From: a virus
Taxonomy: Duplodnaviria; Heunggongvirae; Uroviricota; Caudoviricetes
Reading direction: 5' to 3' (one strand)
IMG/VR virus record: IMGVR_UViG_2579779002_000006
DNA: 23,775 nt
Position numbers and translations under genes: made by a program. Below, in pieces: positions 861 to 15,943 of the stretch; the first letter of the stretch is position 1; every line of letters begins with the position of its first letter. Under the pieces are notes generated by a model that was given only the letters and a program-made list of their open reading frames with translations, was not told where the DNA came from and made no database searches.

Positions 861-2144
861 TTACAGACTTCTGGAAGGTTGCGCAGCTCTTACAACACGC
901 GGTTGATCTTCCGCAGCGTCTTCCAGCGCACTTAAATCACGGTCTTTCACCTCTGGCATTTGCAGCGCAGAGATTAAACCAATCACTGAATATGCCATGA
1001 TCATAATGGCGATCGGATACCAGGATTCCGTCATGGTGCAGAAAATACCCGCCAGGATAGGACCAAAACCGGAAGCGATAAGACCACCAATTTCTTTAGA
1101 AATAGCCATCCGGGTAAAGCGGTTTTTACAGCCGAACATTTCTGCCATGGTAATGTTTTCCAGAGCAAATAATCCCAGCACCGCACAGTTATGAATCACA
1201 ATCAGTGCAACCATAATGGTGCTCGGGGCATAGCTTTTATCTACAATGATAGAAAGCATTGGCCATGCCAGCACAATCGCGGAGGTATTCATAATAATAT
1301 ACGGGATCCGGCGACCAATTTTATCGGATAACCAACCAAGGAACGGAATGGTCATAAAGCCGAGAATCGAACTGATCATCAATGCATCTGTTGGAATTGC
1401 TTTGTTAAACAATAACGTCTGCACTAAATAGCCTGCAAGGAAAGTCTGAATTAACCCGGAGTTACCCGCCTGACCAAAACGCAGCCCTGTTGCCAGCCAG
1501 AAGGATTTGCTCTGGAACATGCTACCAGCAGGTGCAGGTTTTGCTGTCGGTTGGTTACTGTCGTTAACCTTCTCAAAGACCGGGCTTTCTTTCAGATTCA
1601 TACGCAACCAGATAGCAAAGACCATCACGACAACGCTCGCCAGGAACGGTATACGCCATCCCCACGCCAGCAGTTCCTCTTTACTGAGAATGAAGAACAT
1701 AAAGGCCCAGATTGCCGTTGCGCTCAAGGTTCCGCAGTTAGTTCCCATAGCCACAAATGAGGAGATAATTCCGCGCTTACCTTTTGGCGCATATTCCGCC
1801 AGCATCGTACCGGCACCGGAAATTTCCGCACCTGCACCCAACCCCTGAATAATACGCAACGTCACCAGCAAGATGGGTGCAAAAACACCAATCTGTGCAT
1901 AGGTCGGTAACACACCAATTAAGGTGGTACAGATCCCCATCATGGTGATGGTAATAAAGAGCACTTTTTTACGCCCTATTCTGTCGCCCATTTTGCCGAA
2001 AATAAATGCTCCGACAATACGCGCCACATAACCTGCACCGTAGGTTCCCATTGCCAGAATTAACGCCATTGCCGTTGATGATTCAGGAAAAAATATTTCA
2101 TGAAACACTAACGCTGCGCCGAGCGAATATAACTGGAAATCCAT
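861..2144 (-). CDS. ydfJ: MFS family transporter (metabolite:H+ symporter type)
   Basis: 427-aa ORF with multiple hydrophobic spans and the MFS loop motif G-x-x-x-D-R-x-G-R-K (GKMGDRIGRKK). Length and N-terminus match my recollection of K-12 YdfJ, and ydfI lies next to it in the same orientation. Confidence 0.9.
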   Translation of the reverse strand: MDFQLYSLGAALVFHEIFFPESSTAMALILAMGTYGAGYVARIVGAFIFGKMGDRIGRKKVLFITITMMGICTTLIGVLPTYAQIGVFAPILLVTLRIIQGLGAGAEISGAGTMLAEYAPKGKRGIISSFVAMGTNCGTLSATAIWAFMFFILSKEELLAWGWRIPFLASVVVMVFAIWLRMNLKESPVFEKVNDSNQPTAKPAPAGSMFQSKSFWLATGLRFGQAGNSGLIQTFLAGYLVQTLLFNKAIPTDALMISSILGFMTIPFLGWLSDKIGRRIPYIIMNTSAIVLAWPMLSIIVDKSYAPSTIMVALIVIHNCAVLGLFALENITMAEMFGCKNRFTRMAISKEIGGLIASGFGPILAGIFCTMTESWYPIAIMIMAYSVIGLISALQMPEVKDRDLSALEDAAEDQPRVVRAAQPSRSL

Positions 2145-2746
2145 AATTCACAGGTGTTTTTTCCCATCCTGTGGTTTCCTTGGCGTTTTCTAGGTTTTTT
2201 CAGATAGTTGCATTTTTTAAAAAGCATCCTAAGTTCGATCTCAGTGTCTATCTGGGGCCTATTTCTGTCCCATATATGCCCCAAAAAAACTCCCCAACAG
2301 ATAAGTAGTTTTTTCATGGATTTATGCGTAAAATCAAGAACGGCTGGAAATCATTCAATACTCACACTATCGAAAAATTTACCAGCCAACCGCAGCACGT
2401 TCTTGCATAAGGCGTGTCTGCGGTTTTTCAACTATTCAGATACATCACTCCCATCACATTCATTCCTCCGCATCAAAGGCATATAGGCTATATCACCTTG
2501 ATATTTTTCTTTTTCAGATAAAAACTGTTATCTATGTATACTTTTAAACCCAATCCGTGTAGAGTCTCTGCATAAGATAGTTTGCAGTTGCCGCTTCAGC
2601 TTGCGCCATAACCGCCTGATTTTTGCTGCCACCTGTTAGCATTCCTGTATACCTGAAACGACAATGTTTATCTACGAACTTTAAGAACACCCAAGATAAA
2701 AATTGTCAACTATATCATATATAACACATTACTAATTCGAGGCTAT

Positions 2747-2860
2747 ATGAACAGCATACTGATAATCACTTCTCTCCTTATCATATTCAGCATTTTTAGT
2801 CATGCCCTAATAAAATTAGGGATTGGCATATCCAATAACCCAGACAAAACCGATGTATAA
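2747..2860 (+). CDS. Candidate small hydrophobic protein, 37 aa ([37 protein letters not shown])
   Basis: ATG preceded by GAGG about 5 nt upstream; about 25 hydrophobic residues then a polar tail. Below the cutoff of the supplied ORF track; translated by hand. No homology support. Confidence 0.2.
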
Positions 2861-2928
2861 GTCAACATATCCTGAATCAGACATACAATATCGCAATGAA
2901 AATCAATAATATTTTAAGGAATATCTTC

Positions 2929-3162
2929 ATGAAATCAAAAGACACCCTAAAGTGGTTCCCTGCGCAGCTTCCTGAAGTAAGAATTATCCTAGGGGATGCT
3001 GTAGTGGAAGTAGCAAAACAGGGAAGACCTATCAATACCAGAACATTGCTTGATTACATTGAAGGAAACATAAAGAAAAAATCATGGCTGGATAACAAAG
3101 AATTATTACAAACAGCGATATCAGTTCTTAAAGACAACCAAAATTTAAATGGTAAAATGTAA
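2929..3162 (+). CDS. ydfK: YdfK/YnaE-family prophage cold-shock-induced protein (77 aa)
   Basis: Internal Met of ORF 2896..3162 (MKSKDTLKWFPAQLPEVRIILGDAVVEVAKQGRP...) with AAGGA 8 nt upstream; the 2896 ATG has no Shine-Dalgarno. 77 aa matches my recollection of K-12 YdfK, which sits next to pinQ. Confidence 0.8.
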   Translation: MKSKDTLKWFPAQLPEVRIILGDAVVEVAKQGRPINTRTLLDYIEGNIKKKSWLDNKELLQTAISVLKDNQNLNGKM

Positions 3163-3478
3163 TATAATAAACTTACTTTTTTATCATTTTTCCACTTTAA
3201 CAACATTTTGCTCCACTTTTCCACGACCAAACAACTTAAAATCTGGTTAAAATAACACGAAACACTATTCTTCTTCCTTGAGTCCGCCCGGAACTCGAAA
3301 AACAAACCGAGTTAAAGCCATTTTTCACAAAATCGATTTTGGGTCTCACCAAGATTACGGGGTTGCATACGCATTCGTTTATTTTCGAACGTGTACATAC
3401 AAATATGCACAAAAATAATCAAAATTATTTTCTGCGATGCATTATGATATGAACACCAATTTCGTATAGAGTCTCACT

Positions 3479-4069
3479 ATGTCTCGAATTTTTGCTTACT
3501 GTCGGATATCAACGCTGGATCAGACCACCGAAAATCAACGCCGGGAAATCGAAAGTGCAGGTTTTAAAATCAAACCTCAGCAAATAATCGAAGAACACAT
3601 TAGCGGCTCAGCAGCAACCAGTGAGCGTCCTAGTTTTAACCGGTTGCTTGCTCGCCTGAAATGTGGTGATCAATTGATTGTGACAAAACTGGATCGCCTT
3701 GGTTGTAATGCAATGGATATCAGGAAAACAGTGGAACAACTGACCGAAACAGGTATCAGAGTGCATTGCTTAGCATTGGGGGGCATTGACTTGACCAGTC
3801 CAACAGGAAAAATGATGATGCAAGTAATTTCAGCAGTTGCTGAATTTGAACGAGACCTTTTACTTGAACGCACTCATTCCGGGATAGTAAGAGCCCGCGG
3901 CGCAGGGAAACGTTTTGGTCGACCACCTGTGTTAAATGAAGAACAGAAACAGGTGGTATTCGAACGAATTAAGTCAGGTGTAAGTATAAGTGCCATTGCC
4001 CGGGAATTCAAAACCTCGCGGCAAACCATTTTAAGAGCCAAAGCAAAACTTCAGACACCTGACATATAA
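3479..4069 (+). CDS. pinQ: Serine recombinase, DNA invertase Pin (Gin/Hin/Cin family)
   Basis: 196 aa; N-terminal catalytic motif YCRISTLDQ (serine nucleophile), C-terminal helix-turn-helix; same length and sequence as I recall for K-12 PinQ; adjacent to tfa/stf as in Qin, Rac and e14. Confidence 0.92.
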
Positions 4070-4166: not shown

Positions 4167-4742
4167 CTACGGCAGTGCTGGCCATTCAATATCCTGTGCA
4201 GTTGACGTATCAACACGGTTCAGCAATACCCGATACTTTTTCCATGCTTCCAGCAACGAGATTTCTTCCTCCGTTGCAATTTCCAGATCTGCAGCATCCT
4301 GAAGCGGAGCAATATGCTCACTGGCTACCTGCATCAGGTTGTTTTTTGTTTCTTCCGCCTCCCGGATCCGGAACAGTTTTTCTGCTTCCGTATCCTTCAC
4401 CCAGGCTGTGCCGTTCCACTTCTGAAACTCCCCTTCCGGCGATAACCAGGTAACATTTTTCGGTAACGGACCGAGTTCAGAAATAAATAACGCGTCGCCG
4501 GAAGCCACGTCATAAACCGTTTTACCCCGATGATCTTCAACGAGATGCCACGATGACTCATCACTGTTGAAAACAGCCACGAAGCCAGCCGGAATATCTG
4601 GCGGTGCAATATCGGTACTGTTTGCTGGCAGACCTGTATGAGGCGGAATATATGCATCACCTTCACCAATAAATTCATTAGTTCCGGCCAGCAGATTATA
4701 AATTGTTATGGTCCGTGGTTGTTCACTCATTCTGAATGCCAT
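4167..4742 (-). CDS. tfaQ: Tail fibre assembly protein Tfa
   Basis: 191 aa, [44 protein letters not shown]... closely matches lambda Tfa as I recall it; start overlaps the stf stop (ATGA). Confidence 0.9.
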
Positions 4743-8667: not shown

Positions 8668-8914
8668 TCAGCTAATCGTGATGCCTGCAGTGGCTTTCTT
8701 CATCACCACAACCAGCAAATCGCTGATACTTGCTGTGGGATACCAGTTATTTACCAGCCATGCTGACACCGAAAACTCCAGTGTCATGTGACCGTGACCG
8801 GCAGGCATATCAATAACACCACTGTAAATCAGCGTATTATCCAGCGCGGTACGGTTATAAATTTCAGCACCGTTTTTCCGCACTATCAGACGGCATGAGG
8901 AGAAAAATATCAGT
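8668..8914 (-). pseudogene. J: J C-terminal segment in a different frame (receptor-binding end), separated from the main J frame by an apparent 1-nt indel
   Basis: Part of ORF 8668..9165: ...[12 protein letters not shown]...SGVIDMPAGHGHMTLEF...VVVMKKATAGITIS aligns with the lambda J C-terminus (LKVLMNGAVIYDG...RIVDMPAGRGNVILTF...VQVMVIKKQALGISVV). Confidence 0.6.
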
Positions 8915-11900
8915 ATGCTCTTTCTCATGTTTAGCGCCGCTGAATGCCACCGCCGGAATAACAATCTGCCGGTCAAACGGCTGATCGTCATAAACCCTGA
9001 CGGTAATGGTTCCTGATGGCCACCGCTCCGGTGCACGGGAGTCCCGGGGGAAAGCTTTGCCCACTGTTTTAACGAGATCGCCTTCAATCTGGTTCGCGGA
9101 CAATTTTCCCAGAACCCGACAGTTCTCGTTAATCGTGACGTTGTTGAGCGTCCCGGAGTTCGCATTCACGTTACCGCTGATATCGGCATTTTTCGCCGTC
9201 AGCCGCCCGTCCGGTGTCAGGGAAAATGCCGGAGGATTACCGCCGCTGGTAATGGTGGGAGCCGTCAGATATTTCAGGAACACTTCATTCATAAATATCT
9301 GATCGCCCTGACCAACAAACATCGGCTTTGTGTTGCCATTCGCAGGATTAATCATCGCAATCCTGTCTGCCGCCAGCAGCACCTGACTCTGCATTCCTGC
9401 TGGCGTATTCTCAATACCGGCACCGATACCCGCAATATAAAGGCGTCCGTCCTGCATCTGCTGCAGTTTCACGGCCCACATGCTGTTCAGGTTATTATTT
9501 GTATCAACCTGAACTTTCTGTATCTGCTGGATTGCCGCACTCTGATTTTCCAGTTTTTTATTGACGGTCTGCGTGATTTCATTGCTGACATTCGTAATGG
9601 ACGTCCTGATTTCAGCCAGGTCCGGCGCAAGCTGACCGTTATCAATCTGCGTCCACAGCTCCTGGGCCAGATGTGTTTTCCCGATTTCTCCTTTGAAAAA
9701 ATCCAGGTAACCTTCCGCATCATCGCTCGCCCGACCGACAGCCTCCACGAATGCCGATTTGCCAACAGTATTCACACTGCGGATATAAAAATAATAATCA
9801 TGGCCCGGTTTGATATTGATACTGGCAGCTATCCAGTACAGCGCCGAGCCAAGATAGCGGGCTGCGGTTTCAACCTGCCTGATATCCGCAATCCGCTTTT
9901 CCGAGAACCAGAACTCAAACTGTACCGTCGGGTCATAAACGGCAAGATGTGGCGTTGCGGTTATCTGAAAATAGCCCGGCGTCAGCTCAATCCGCGACGG
10001 TGCTGCCGGTGCGGCAATCCGGAAGGTGGTGGTGGCAGGTTCACCCTGCTGGCCATAGCTGTTTATCGCCCGCACCGTCAGGGTGTATTCCCCGAGCGGC
10101 AGGCCGCTGAAACGGTGCTCCGTGTCTGCGGTGATGGCGGTGGTCACCAGTCTGGCATCCGTTCCCTTACCACTGGTCAGGCGCAGACTGAAGCGCACAC
10201 CCTTCACCACCCGCGGCGTGTCCCATTTCGCCTGCGCCAGATACTGGCCGTCAGCTGCGCTCACCTCCACCGTCAGGTGCTGCACTGCCGGTGGGATGAC
10301 GCTGTTCAGGGAACCTGACTGCGGCTCAAAGCGGGCACCGTTATCCACGATGGCTTCTTTTTCCGGTACGTGCTGCACCGCCGTGATGGCAAAGGTGCCG
10401 TCCGTGTTTTCCCGGATGGAGACACAGCGGAACAGGCGACGGCGCAGTGACGGCAGGGAGAGTCCCCACACCCCGTATGTCTCCACACCATCAGGCAGGG
10501 TACTGACCTGTATCCGGTCCGGCGCGGGGTGTGCGGTGATGTCCACACTCACCGGCTTACCGCTGCCGTTAATCAGGTTCACCGCCGATGTACCTGTCTC
10601 CGGCAGGGTAACCTCACGGTCCAGCGTCAGGGTGCGGGTGGCAGCATAAATGGACAGGACACGTCCGCCGGTCAGGGTCCCGGCATAGTCATTATCACAG
10701 ATTTCAATAATGTCACCGGGTGTGTGCCGCAGCCCCTGAGACCCGAGCGTGAAATCCACCGTCTGCGTTTCCAGCAGTTCGGTCTTTATCACCCACAGTC
10801 CGGCACGGTGGGCCTGACCGCGGCTGGTACAGCCGAACGCGTCCATCTTCAGCAGGTTGCGTCCGTAGCGCAGTATGGCTTCCGGGTCTTCCACCAGTTC
10901 CGTGGAGGTCTGCCAGCCGTTCTGCGGGTCGGTGTAATTCACCTCCACCGCCGTGTGCCGGTCCTTCAGGGCACTGAAGCTGTAGCGGAATCCCACGCCG
11001 TTATCATCCACCACCACATCGCTGTTGGTGTACGGCCACACCACATCCGACGGGCGGTCCTGAACGAACGTCAGCGTCTGACCGTTCCATACCGGCATAC
11101 AGCGCATCGCAGAGCAGAAATCACTGAGAACGTCCCACGCCTTACGCTGTTGTGCCAGGTACGCATTAAAGGTCATCCGCGGCTCGGTCCCCCCGAAACC
11201 ATCCGGGACCGTCTGGTCGCAGTACTGCCCGATGGCATACAGCGCCCACTTGTCCACATCCGCCGCCCCCAGACGTTTTCCCATGCCGTAGCGCGGGTGA
11301 GTCAGCATGTCCCACAGGCACCAGGCCGGGTTGTTGCTGTATGCCGGTTTCAGACTGCCGTCCCAGATACCACTGTACGTGCGTTTTTCCGGGTCATAGT
11401 TTGACGGCACCTGGATGATGCGACCGCGGATATGGTAGTTCACCGTCATCTGCTGGCCGCCGAACTGCTCCGCATCCACCTGCAGCCCCACAATGGCCGT
11501 GTTCGGGTAGCACTGTTTCACATCGATGATTTCGGTGTATGACGACCACAGCGTCTTATTCTGCAGCTGGTCCGTGGTGCTGTCCGCCGTCTCCCTGACC
11601 ATCCGGATGTTAAAGGGCCGGGGAGGCAGATTATCCAGAATCACCGAGGCCAGGAACTGTGAGGTGGTCTTGCCGTTAATGGTGACGTCCTTTTCCGTCA
11701 CCCAGCGGCCATTACGCTGTAACTGAATCAGAATCCGGACAGAGGAAGGATTACGGTCGCCCTTTGACGTGGTCTGCACCAGTGACTGCACCCCGAAGGT
11801 AACCCGCAGGCGGTCAATGTTCGCGGACGTAATGGTGCGCGTCACCGGTTTTGCCTTCGTCACTTCCACGCCCAGTCCGGTTTCAGCTCCGGAGGACTCA

Positions 11901-12142
11901 AAGCCTTCCGGTGGTGTCTGCTCCTGCTCCCCGGCGCGCCAGACCGCCGTCACACCGTGTATCACGGGATTGCCGTCCGTGTCCGTCAGTGGGGTTTTGT
12001 TCACCAGAATACTCTGCAGTCCCTTCACCGGACCTTCTATCGGTCCCTCACCAATCGCATCAATCACACTCATCATCTGCGTGGATTTGAGATTATCCTT
12101 CGCCTCACGAGGCGTGTGTGCCTTACCGCCACCTTTTCCCAT
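8864..12142 (-). CDS. J: Tail tip / host specificity protein J, N-terminal 1092-aa reading frame (frame lost near 8903-8912)
   Basis: [22 protein letters not shown]... collinear with lambda J over more than 1000 aa; the last ~16 codons ([16 protein letters not shown]) do not match lambda. Confidence 0.9.
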
Positions 12143-12248
12143 ACAGCCTTCCCCTGAATAAATTAACCGCCACTTGCCATTCCGTACAGAAGTCGGATAT
12201 CCTTCGCCCGAAAAGCATGAAACACATTTCTGCCATGCTAAAGAGAAA

Positions 12249-12280
12249 CCCCGGTATCAGCAGATACCGGGGTTTTCTTT
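12249..12280. terminator. Strong bidirectional hairpin (9-bp stem CCCCGGTAT/ATACCGGGG, 6-nt loop) with T-rich flanks, in the I-J spacer
   Basis: + strand: AAACCCCGGTATCAGCAGATACCGGGGTTTTCTTT; the - strand has TTTCTCTTT after the stem. Confidence 0.5.
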
Positions 12281-12484
12281 CATGCCCACCGATAATCCTG
12301 TTGGTTAAAACCGGTAATGGCATAAAAATTCTGAATATCTTCACATTTTCACACACTGACTGTGGCGCTTATAATTTCGCTGCGTTAGTGTTTTTTTGCC
12401 CGAGTAACAAAAACAACTCCTTAACATTGATCTTCATTTGTCTGTCCCCACAGCTCCGCGATCACTGCGGGATTTTTTTATGTT

Positions 12485-13165
12485 TTATCCCTGTCGCCCG
12501 ATAACCACGACCGTTCCGCCCCCGCCTTCATCACGGGTGCTGATGTCCTGGGATATACGGCGGGAGCCAACCAGCATTTCCCCGTAAGGCACCGGCATCG
12601 GGTTCCCCTGGGCAATCATGTTATCCAGCGAGGAAAAGTACGTGTTCTGTTTACCGTTATCCGTGCTTTTGTACTCCGGTGTTTTTGCCTTCGGGGCCAG
12701 CATCTGGGCCACACCGCCCAGTATCATGCTGGCCCCCAGTGAAAACAGCATCGTGGTGGCAGAAAAACCGCCGGCTGCCAGGGCTGTACCCCATAACGCC
12801 ATCGAGCCTCCGGCAGTGAAGAAAGAGCCCACGATGGCTGCCGCCCCCAGTACAATCTGCAGTCCACCCTTTCCGGCCCCGGCCAGTCGCGGCACAATGT
12901 GGATGACCGTTCCCTCACCCAGCTGTTCGTGAAGACGGGCATACACCGCCTCCGGTGCCGTGTCATCACCGGCAATACGTATCTGGTACCAGCCTTCGTT
13001 CATCTGACGGCGAAAGCCCGGCATCTGCATCGACAGGGCGCGAATGGCTTCCGCTGCCGTGTTCACATACAGGCTGAGGCGGCGGCCAAATCGTTGCAAA
13101 TCCCCGTGAAGGCAGATGCGTGCCAGTGGCGGTGACGCCAGACAGAATGCGTTCGTCGTTGCCAT
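12485..13165 (-). CDS. I: Tail assembly protein I
   Basis: 226 aa; ...RICLHGDLQRFGRR...IVLGAAAIVGSFFTAGG...KQNTYFSSLDNM... matches lambda gpI; 5' end overlaps K by ~100 nt, as in lambda. Confidence 0.9.
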   Translation of the reverse strand: MATTNAFCLASPPLARICLHGDLQRFGRRLSLYVNTAAEAIRALSMQMPGFRRQMNEGWYQIRIAGDDTAPEAVYARLHEQLGEGTVIHIVPRLAGAGKGGLQIVLGAAAIVGSFFTAGGSMALWGTALAAGGFSATTMLFSLGASMILGGVAQMLAPKAKTPEYKSTDNGKQNTYFSSLDNMIAQGNPMPVPYGEMLVGSRRISQDISTRDEGGGGTVVVIGRQG

Positions 13166-14856: not shown

Positions 14857-15943
14857 TCAGCATTCCTCCGTCACGTCGCATGGACAGCATCACCGCCTGC
14901 ACCCGCTGGTCAATCAGTTGCACAAGGCTGCCCGCAGCTTCCGGCCCTATCTGGCCATTAGTCCCGTCATTCTGAATGGCGATATGGTAGACCGGGGAAT
15001 ACACCAGACCTGCACTGCCGTTCATACTGCCCACCGCTCGCACACCCAGCGAGCCATCCGCCGCCCGGGTCAGGGGCATAATGGCTTCAGGACCGGCCTC
15101 CCCCATCAGTCCCGCCCCTTTTGCAAAGGCAAAGTACGTGGGCGTATCCACAATACTGTTGCTGTACGCACTCAGGTTTGCCGAGGTATACACCCCGCCT
15201 TTTGCATTGGCCACCGCACCGCCCAGCCAGCTACCAATACTGCCGATAAATCCTCCCGCTCCGGACATACTGTTTGCCGCCGTCTTGATCCCGTTGACAA
15301 TCGCGGCATTCATAAGAACTTTTGATATTTCCTGCAGCACTGATGAGGCCCAGCTGCGCCATTCCACTTTATTTCCGTTCAGCATCTCCGTGATGTTATT
15401 CACCATCCCTGAGATACCCTCCGTCGCCAGCTGTGCTGCCTGTGAGGCGTAATCGGACGCATTATCCACCCAGTTACTGAATCCCTCCTGCAGCCCTTTC
15501 TGCCAGTCCGCACGCTGCACATCCGATTCGGCATAAAAGGCTTCCTGCTCTTTCAGACGTTCACTCAGATACTGCGCGTTCTGTGCCAGAGCCTGTCTGT
15601 AAAAATCCTCACTGATATCCCCGGTCTGATACTGAGACTGAAGGTCCGCATCCTTCTGGCGGAAACTGTCGCGGATCTGCTGCAACTCCCGCATGCGTTC
15701 ACGGAGCCGCTCTCCCTGCCCGTACCCCAGCAGTTCCGCTTCATTTGATGCACGCGCAGCCACATTATCATTCTTCAGGGTCTCTTCCCGGGACCGCAAC
15801 TGCTCCCGGATTTTTTGCTGGTCAATCAGGGCCGCATTGCGCAGCAGTTCCTGCTTCTGCATCTCCGTCAGGGTTTTCAGTTCGCCCTGCGCAGTCTGGT
15901 ATTTCAGCTTCGCCAGCTCTGTATTCTGCCCCGGGATTTGGGT
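14849..15943 (-). CDS. H: Tail tape measure protein, C-terminal segment in a shifted frame (open from about 15943; listed ORF begins at internal Met 15862)
   Basis: C-terminus ...HIAIQNDGTNGQIGPEAAGSLVQLIDQRVQAVMLSMRRDGGMLSG resembles the lambda gpH C-terminus (...NNDGTNGQIGPAALKAVYDMARK...MRDGGLFSG); the two frames overlap over ~15907-15943. Confidence 0.8.
   Translation of the reverse strand, partial: TQIPGQNTELAKLKYQTAQGELKTLTEMQKQELLRNAALIDQQKIREQLRSREETLKNDNVAARASNEAELLGYGQGERLRERMRELQQIRDSFRQKDADLQSQYQTGDISEDFYRQALAQNAQYLSERLKEQEAFYAESDVQRADWQKGLQEGFSNWVDNASDYASQAAQLATEGISGMVNNITEMLNGNKVEWRSWASSVLQEISKVLMNAAIVNGIKTAANSMSGAGGFIGSIGSWLGGAVANAKGGVYTSANLSAYSNSIVDTPTYFAFAKGAGLMGEAGPEAIMPLTRAADGSLGVRAVGSMNGSAGLVYSPVYHIAIQNDGTNGQIGPEAAGSLVQLIDQRVQAVMLSMRRDGGMLSG

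Follow-up and report, generated by a model that had tools for sequence, protein, structure and literature searches.

A published Hfq-dependent sRNA gene, pasB, and a terminator-like hairpin in the I-J spacer of a lambdoid prophage

The window analysed here is a stretch of 23,775 nucleotides carrying a lambdoid prophage with its late operon on the minus strand. According to the ORF list and Pfam matches, tail genes I and J are separated by an intergenic spacer of 342 bp, and the bounds of the two ORFs (I, 12485-13165; J, 8864-12142) place it exactly at 12143-12484, which bears out the insert that had been predicted between them. Downstream of J comes lom, followed by genes for a tail fibre, for fibre assembly and for an invertase. 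The description of I and J of phage lambda as almost contiguous was roughly right, the actual gap being 60 bp (I ends at 15444, J starts at 15505). The following features are referred to below:

8864-12142, minus strand: tail tip / host specificity gene J, with the full gpJ domain set (Pfam)
12143-12321, no strand assigned: left block, which holds the big hairpin and the J leader and is inherited with the J allele
12240-12284, no strand assigned: terminator-like hairpin with a 13-bp perfect stem (12246-12258 / 12263-12275) and the loop AGCA
12330-12345, plus strand: CRP-like palindrome TCTGA-N6-TCACA (9/10 core positions), upstream of the pasB -10
12348-12375, plus strand: pasB sigma-70 promoter, with -35 TTCACA (12348-12353), a 16-nt spacer and -10 TATAAT (12370-12375)
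12382-12479, plus strand: predicted primary PasB transcript of 98 nt, with the +1 (G12382) deduced from the -10 position and the 3' end in U7
12397-12479, plus strand: PasB as annotated in E2348/69 (83 nt; 81/83 identity), mapped to the window from table S6 of PMC8550237
12447-12479, plus strand: Rho-independent terminator of PasB, with the family stem CCCGCAG/CTGCGGG (12447-12453 / 12465-12471) and U7 (12473-12479)
12485-13165, minus strand: tail assembly gene I (Pfam Lambda_tail_I, PF06805, E 1.8e-16)

In line with the earlier statement that no ORF has a credible RBS, those in the spacer are all 20-49 aa long or run across the big hairpin, and neither the ORF list nor the allele alignment revealed a conserved one. 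Rfam returned no significant match to the spacer, and a permissive scan to E = 10 gave terminator-like chance matches that fell well short of the gathering scores. A literature search with the sequences of the hairpin and the terminator as text strings yielded no match.

By sequence comparison, the right half of the spacer (12322-12484, plus strand) is pasB, the gene of a published Hfq-dependent sRNA, and the RNA is thus already known. PasB was described as E2348CN_0006 (NC_011601.1, 1466343-1466261, minus strand, 83 nt) in prophage PP6 of EPEC O127:H6 strain E2348/69 (Pearl Mizrahi 2021, PMC8550237), and was probed on Northern blots with AATCCCGCAGTGATCGCGGAGCT (table S6, PMC8550237). The window has a single match to the reverse complement of this probe, located on the plus strand at 12452-12474 and free of mismatches; 0/100 shuffles matched it. 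Over the annotated RNA the two sequences share 81 of 83 positions and differ at position 27 (C>A) and position 54 (G>A); the former is the polymorphism named in the contrast of PasB with PasB-2 (Zhu, Shabalina and Storz 2026, bioRxiv 10.64898/2026.05.13.724894). From 12329 onward, over a stretch that covers the promoter and runs beyond the terminator, these two bases are the only differences. Synteny is also the same: PasB of E2348/69 is flanked by tail assembly protein I and gpJ and is antisense to the two genes. In the window, the stop codon of gene I, on the other strand, is 5 nt away from the 3' end of PasB. All 12 further pasB alleles inspected abut gene I, with gpJ inside the fetched stretch in 10/12. 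The exact probe match, the 81/83 identity, the identical promoter and the shared I-J location and orientation together indicate that this is the same gene as PasB of E2348/69. The J-proximal half of the spacer differs from the E2348/69 locus and is here a different block of 179 bp.

In EPEC E2348/69, PasB RNA was detected by Northern blot, RNA-seq and RIL-seq (Pearl Mizrahi 2021, PMC8550237). Its log2 fold change in the delta-hfq mutant was -6.8 and -2.4, it has a U-tract of 7, it took part in 37 RIL-seq interactions with core and accessory genes, and it was more abundant in overnight static LB than in DMEM (PMC8550237). Its gene is described as lying within an operon that encodes structural proteins of the phage (Zhu 2026, bioRxiv 10.64898/2026.05.13.724894). 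By analogy to this near-identical copy, we infer that PasB of the present prophage is made and bound by Hfq, and it would act as an Hfq-dependent, trans-acting base-pairing sRNA produced from the prophage in the lysogen. The suggestion of a small or antisense RNA on the strand opposite the late operon was therefore correct, in that it corresponds to pasB, whose RNA has been detected in E2348/69. None of the RefSeq E. coli records examined carries an annotation at pasB, and Rfam 15 holds no PasB model; reading the sequence alone had thus picked out a validated prophage sRNA gene missed by standard annotation.

The pasB unit would comprise a sigma-70 promoter, a largely unstructured RNA of about 83-98 nt and a Rho-independent terminator with U7. 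The perfect TATAAT reported at 12370-12375 is present and is preceded by TTCACA 16 nt upstream, giving an 11/12 match to the sigma-70 consensus that was reached in 18/2000 dinucleotide shuffles of the spacer. This promoter is identical to that of E2348/69, and the ATAAT of its -10 does not vary across 15 alleles. While the original prediction had found both the TATAAT and the hairpin with the T7 run, and both are real, it had not joined them into a single gene as the promoter and terminator of pasB. A covariance model of the family matched exactly 12382-12479 (94.8 bits, E 1.3e-16; one copy in the window), and a GCGTTA block directly after the predicted +1 is conserved across alleles. The predicted start at 12382 is located 15 nt upstream of the published 5' end (12397), just before a U7-8 run. 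The 5' end in E2348/69 had been set from read coverage and the approximate band size (PMC8550237). Either PasB is processed, or one of the two 5' ends is imprecise.

Upstream of the promoter, the palindrome TCTGA-N6-TCACA is the sole match to at least 9/10 positions of the CRP core within the 23.8-kb window, a level reached by 49/5000 shuffles of the spacer. Across 15 alleles the two half-sites show no change, in contrast to the 6 bp between them and the -35 region, both of which are variable. The palindrome is centred at 12337.5, that is, at -44.5 from the predicted +1, which fits neither -41.5 (class II) nor a class I position at -61.5 or farther upstream. CRP is a repressor of Spot 42. In static LB, PasB levels were increased and those of Spot 42 decreased, in a comparison in which growth phase and oxygen also differ; in light of the repression of Spot 42 by CRP, this pattern is consistent with activation of pasB by CRP. 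As a hypothesis, the candidate site at 12330-12345 hints at regulation of pasB by CRP.

The pasB module was found by blastn in 1809/5426 complete E. coli genomes, at identities of 70-100% and in as many as 11 copies per genome. Alignments were made of 15 alleles sampled across this identity range and of 25 unique alleles including those of IMG/VR prophages. Invariant or nearly so were ATAAT of the -10, the block just upstream, GCGTTA, and the stem CCCGCAG/CTGCGGG with U7, whereas the body differs by 20-30%. The covariance model was built from the 25 alleles, and unrelated terminators with the same stem sequence scored at most 37 bits under it, compared to 94.8 for the window. These negative controls were unrelated terminators among the matches listed in a scan of GTDB with a terminator pattern, which was too generic. 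The earlier proposal to look for the insert and for conserved structure in related phages was answered in the affirmative: related prophages carry pasB, and its promoter and terminator stem are conserved.

The fold of PasB was no more stable than that of shuffled sequence (z = 0.10 and -0.25), the RNAalifold consensus of the 25 alleles contained no covariation, and the terminator stem was the sole structure retained. Accordingly, RNA structure provides no independent support for PasB. A single-stranded body is usual for Hfq-dependent sRNAs. The motifs in PasB comprise the U7-8 run, the A-rich AAC/AAA repeat AACAAAAACAAC, CUCCUU, the conserved UUAAUCUUC and the 3' U7. At the motif level, it thus displays features of Hfq-dependent trans-acting sRNAs, namely U-rich and A-R-N type motifs and a free 3' U-tail, with everything outside the terminator unpaired.

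The terminator of the window copy carries an unusual base. Its stem reads CCCACAG, which creates an A.C mismatch at the pair 12450/12468 in a stem that is invariant in 24/25 alleles. This A in place of G, which is the G>A at RNA position 54, is the only difference between the window and the common pasB allele, and A at 12450 occurs in just 4/854 E. coli records. The 7-bp family stem thus loses one pair, while U7 is intact and an alternative 6-bp stem with two G.U pairs, spanning 12455-12471, is kept. This alternative stem and the T7 run at 12473-12479 are the second short hairpin that had been reported at about 12455-12480. The G>A change weakened the predicted local fold from -12.6 to -9.0 kcal/mol, with a switch to the shorter stem. 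Based on this folding model, the A12450 copy could have lowered termination and, in turn, a lowered PasB level.

The left block appears from its sequence relationships to be unrelated to the pasB unit and to belong to the J side of the junction. It could not be aligned to the spacers of E2348/69 or Sakai and is at least 99% identical in 1442/1451 E. coli records. Two alleles alternate on the pasB/I side, whereas the left block and the 5' end of J keep an identity of 98-100%. No second copy was found in the window, and elsewhere the block occurs only as this unit at I-J junctions. A repeat or mobile element was rejected, as the block is unique in the window and an apparent second BLAST location was the palindrome matching itself. 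Taken together, the spacer very probably consists of two unrelated units, a complete pasB gene and a J-side block with a terminator-like hairpin.

The hairpin of the left block had been described as a 9-bp GC-rich stem with a T-run on the plus strand. Both hairpin and T-run are present, but the stem is longer than stated, with 13 perfect pairs closing a 4-nt loop, and reaches about 19 pairs when the A-tract upstream (AAAGAGAAA) and the T-tract downstream (TTTTCTTTC) are counted in. Its predicted free energy is -28 to -32 kcal/mol, with z = -5.8 on both strands, and a 13-bp perfect stem was obtained in 0/2000 dinucleotide shuffles of the spacer. The stem is followed by T-rich runs on either strand, TTTTCTTTC on the plus and TTTCTCTTT on the minus strand, each with 7 T in 9 bases. 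A GC-rich stem, a short loop and a U-tract on both strands constitute the anatomy of a bidirectional intrinsic terminator, and on these grounds the element at 12240-12284 is most likely a two-way intrinsic terminator. Like known bidirectional Rho-independent terminators, it has a GC-rich perfect stem and short loop, flanked by an A-tract and, opposite, by a T-tract; unlike these, it lies inside an operon read by Q-antiterminated polymerase rather than between convergent genes. On the plus strand, the hairpin would shield the pasB promoter from antisense transcripts leaving J, and on the minus strand it would stop polymerases unmodified by Q before J, lom and the fibre genes. For this hairpin, the earlier suggestion of a terminator against read-in transcription in the lysogen is plausible.

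Spacers of the E2348/Sakai type have a non-homologous hairpin at the same place, CAGGCAyC...GrTGCCTG, with a compensatory C-G to T-A change between alleles. Because its U-tract is found on the late strand only, shielding of the pasB promoter cannot be its general role. The 60-bp gap of lambda (15445-15504; 746-805 of record L205) likewise contains a hairpin, AAACCGCC-cgca-GGCGGTTT, followed by a T-rich stretch on the late strand. The recurrence of a stable I-J hairpin across non-homologous sequences argues that the hairpin matters. Judged from these sequences, it could serve as a stop for polymerases lacking Q, as an element protecting an mRNA end, or as a shield for the pasB promoter. In one IMG/VR variant of the left block (L025, L178, L187 or L198), the big hairpin is precisely deleted between TTTCT direct repeats.

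Relatives of PasB also appear to be present in EHEC. EcOnc22, EcOnc23 and EcOnc24 are Hfq-crosslinked sRNAs of prophages Sp15, Sp14 and Sp11 of the O157:H7 strain Sakai, and EcOnc22, the one probed, gave a Northern band of about 85 nt that was destabilised in delta-hfq (Tree 2014, PMC4104026; sRNAs listed in table S2). In the current Sakai record, we found a PasB-like gene in the I-J spacers of Sp15 (L002, 1337-1427) and Sp11 (L003, 1318-1408). As the published peak coordinates refer to an older version of the Sakai genome, the shift was calibrated on AgvB1 (published, 1941783-1941835; Rfam AgvB, 1941920-1941981), giving +137 to +146. The shifted Hfq-CRAC peaks of EcOnc22 and EcOnc24 fall inside the predicted 91-nt PasB-like RNAs of Sp15 and Sp11, which argues strongly for these two as PasB paralogues. 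EcOnc22, EcOnc23 and EcOnc24 therefore appear, by position and sequence, to be PasB paralogues in the same slot, with Sp15 and Sp11 having been checked. EcOnc22 and EcOnc24 share with PasB the I-J spacer, the antisense orientation to the late operon, the palindrome, the -10 and the terminator stem, whereas the body is about 74-78% identical and the assignment depends on the coordinate shift. The link between PasB and EcOnc is unstated in the two Pas papers: no homologue of PasB in EHEC is given in table S6 of PMC8550237, and EcOnc is not mentioned in the text of Zhu 2026 (bioRxiv 10.64898/2026.05.13.724894).

The anti-sRNAs AgvB and AsxR (RF02702, RF02703) resemble PasB in being short, Hfq-binding prophage RNAs with their own promoter and intrinsic terminator, and in being non-coding cargo antisense to late transcription. 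They differ in sequence, in their shorter length (51-60 nt) and in their location at the PR' moron site beside Q, stx and the lysis genes. Neither model matched the window at its gathering score or the spacer to E = 10, whereas the same scan recovered AgvB in Sakai. With a location at I-J rather than downstream of PR' and no Rfam match, identity with AgvB or AsxR was ruled out.

The I-J junction carries further cargo in other prophages. In some E. coli prophages, the I-J spacer is occupied by two or three sRNA cassettes arranged in tandem (L010, 134-554; L012, 1-550; L013, 1-553); all of them have the upstream block seen in pasB, and each has a T-run terminator of its own. One cassette type, with the terminator CTCCCGT...ACGGGAG, was missed or scored weakly (21 bits) by the PasB model. 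The CRP-like palindrome was present in every sRNA cassette examined. In Sakai Sp10 (L206, 9485-10335), the slot is occupied in antisense by the Cu/Zn superoxide dismutase gene sodC (ECs_1989), followed by a promoterless pasB-like body; the left block is absent there, with sodC in its place. The sodC moron thus shares with pasB the I-J slot, the antisense strand and a terminator of its own, but differs in being protein-coding cargo, and in Sp10 the pasB-like body lacks its promoter. In view of sodC in the same slot, the suggestion that the insert is a remnant moron holds in spirit as far as a moron is concerned, but not for a dead remnant.

It is conceivable, if rather improbable, that I-J is a dedicated slot for antisense cargo wired to host physiology, in which PasB-family RNAs are under catabolite control and also pair with the late mRNA, and in which the left block may be a second sRNA gene. 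If so, pairing with the late mRNA just upstream of the conserved late-strand terminator hairpin would come in addition to the trans targets, and the nutrient state would be linked either with the silencing of J, lom and fibre genes in lysogens or with PasB clearance upon induction. A12450, the CRP-like palindrome, and the tandem cassettes and sodC in the slot are additions to the Pas papers (PMC8550237; bioRxiv 10.64898/2026.05.13.724894). The added value is modest, namely a recurrent cargo slot, a tie between EPEC PasB and EHEC EcOnc22-24 and a CRP-like site, and leaves the picture of the sRNA mechanism unchanged.

An alternative to the trans-acting role is that PasB would act mainly in cis, by pairing with the late polycistronic mRNA just after the I stop codon, to which it is perfectly complementary, with cleavage or transcription interference leading to less J, lom and fibre product in the lysogen. 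In the opposite direction, PasB could be titrated by the late transcript once the prophage is induced. The constant position of the gene at I-J, antisense to the late operon and with 5 nt between its 3' end and the I stop, speaks for this, as does the terminator-like hairpin that follows pasB on the late strand with both types of left block and in lambda. Nevertheless, the 37 RIL-seq interactions in trans, with core and accessory genes, point elsewhere, and PasB overlaps neither the I coding region nor the ribosome-binding site of J, which is 255 nt away. Moreover, the promoterless pasB copy retained behind sodC in Sakai Sp10 implies that the I-J position may be a merely tolerated cargo slot. 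On balance, we regard a mainly cis-acting PasB as unlikely.

For the J-side block, a doubtful alternative is a second sRNA gene on the plus strand that would form a two-gene array with pasB. It would use the promoter-like TTGCCA-18-TATCCT (12174-12203), start near 12210 and end near 12284, giving an RNA of about 75 nt. The 9/12 promoter match, the very stable terminal hairpin with its T-run and the two or three tandem cassettes in the same slot of other prophages are compatible with such a gene, but 9/12 is at chance level (mean of 0.7 per shuffle of the region), the block has no conserved cassette promoter, goes unrecognised by the PasB model and has no significant Rfam match. Hfq-dependent sRNAs use a free 3' U-tail, whereas here the A-tract pairs with the U-tail and would hide it. 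As the left block is nearly invariant, sequence comparison is uninformative on this point.

It is very improbable that the spacer has no function and is what remains of a decaying moron or of scars left by recombination. The mosaic at the junction, the severing of the pasB body from its promoter by sodC in Sakai Sp10 and the terminator-stem mutation of the window copy would fit decay, but the promoter, palindrome and terminator stem do not vary among alleles with 20-30% divergence elsewhere, PasB is an abundant RNA bound by Hfq in EPEC and, as deduced above, in EHEC, and pasB is present in 1809/5426 complete E. coli genomes. Least credible of all is a small protein encoded on the late strand, such as the 22-aa ORF at 12369-12437 (minus strand), which has an ATG with a weak Shine-Dalgarno-like GGGGA 6 nt upstream and AATCTTCAT (reverse complement of ATGAAGATT) conserved in some alleles, but whose length and sequence vary between alleles and whose ATG is lost in the commonest alleles, as these read AATCTTCGT or AATCTTTGT. 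With its ORFs short or unconserved, coding potential of the spacer was rejected.

Outside the I-J spacer, the window contains a full-length match to Rfam IS009 at 4201-4399 on the minus strand (214.9 bits), 8 kb from the spacer. The commonest Rfam matches in the flanks of PasB are IS009 and IsrG (Zhu 2026, bioRxiv 10.64898/2026.05.13.724894), and the match in the window fits this description. Because it lies inside the tail fibre assembly ORF at 4167-4742, it may represent coding sequence rather than a separate RNA. A serine invertase/resolvase gene (3479-4069, plus strand) adjoins the fibre assembly gene; no convincing inverted repeats for an invertible segment were detected near it. Between the invertase gene and a host MFS transporter gene, about 1.3 kb (2144-3479) is devoid of long ORFs and may be a decayed invertible fibre segment.
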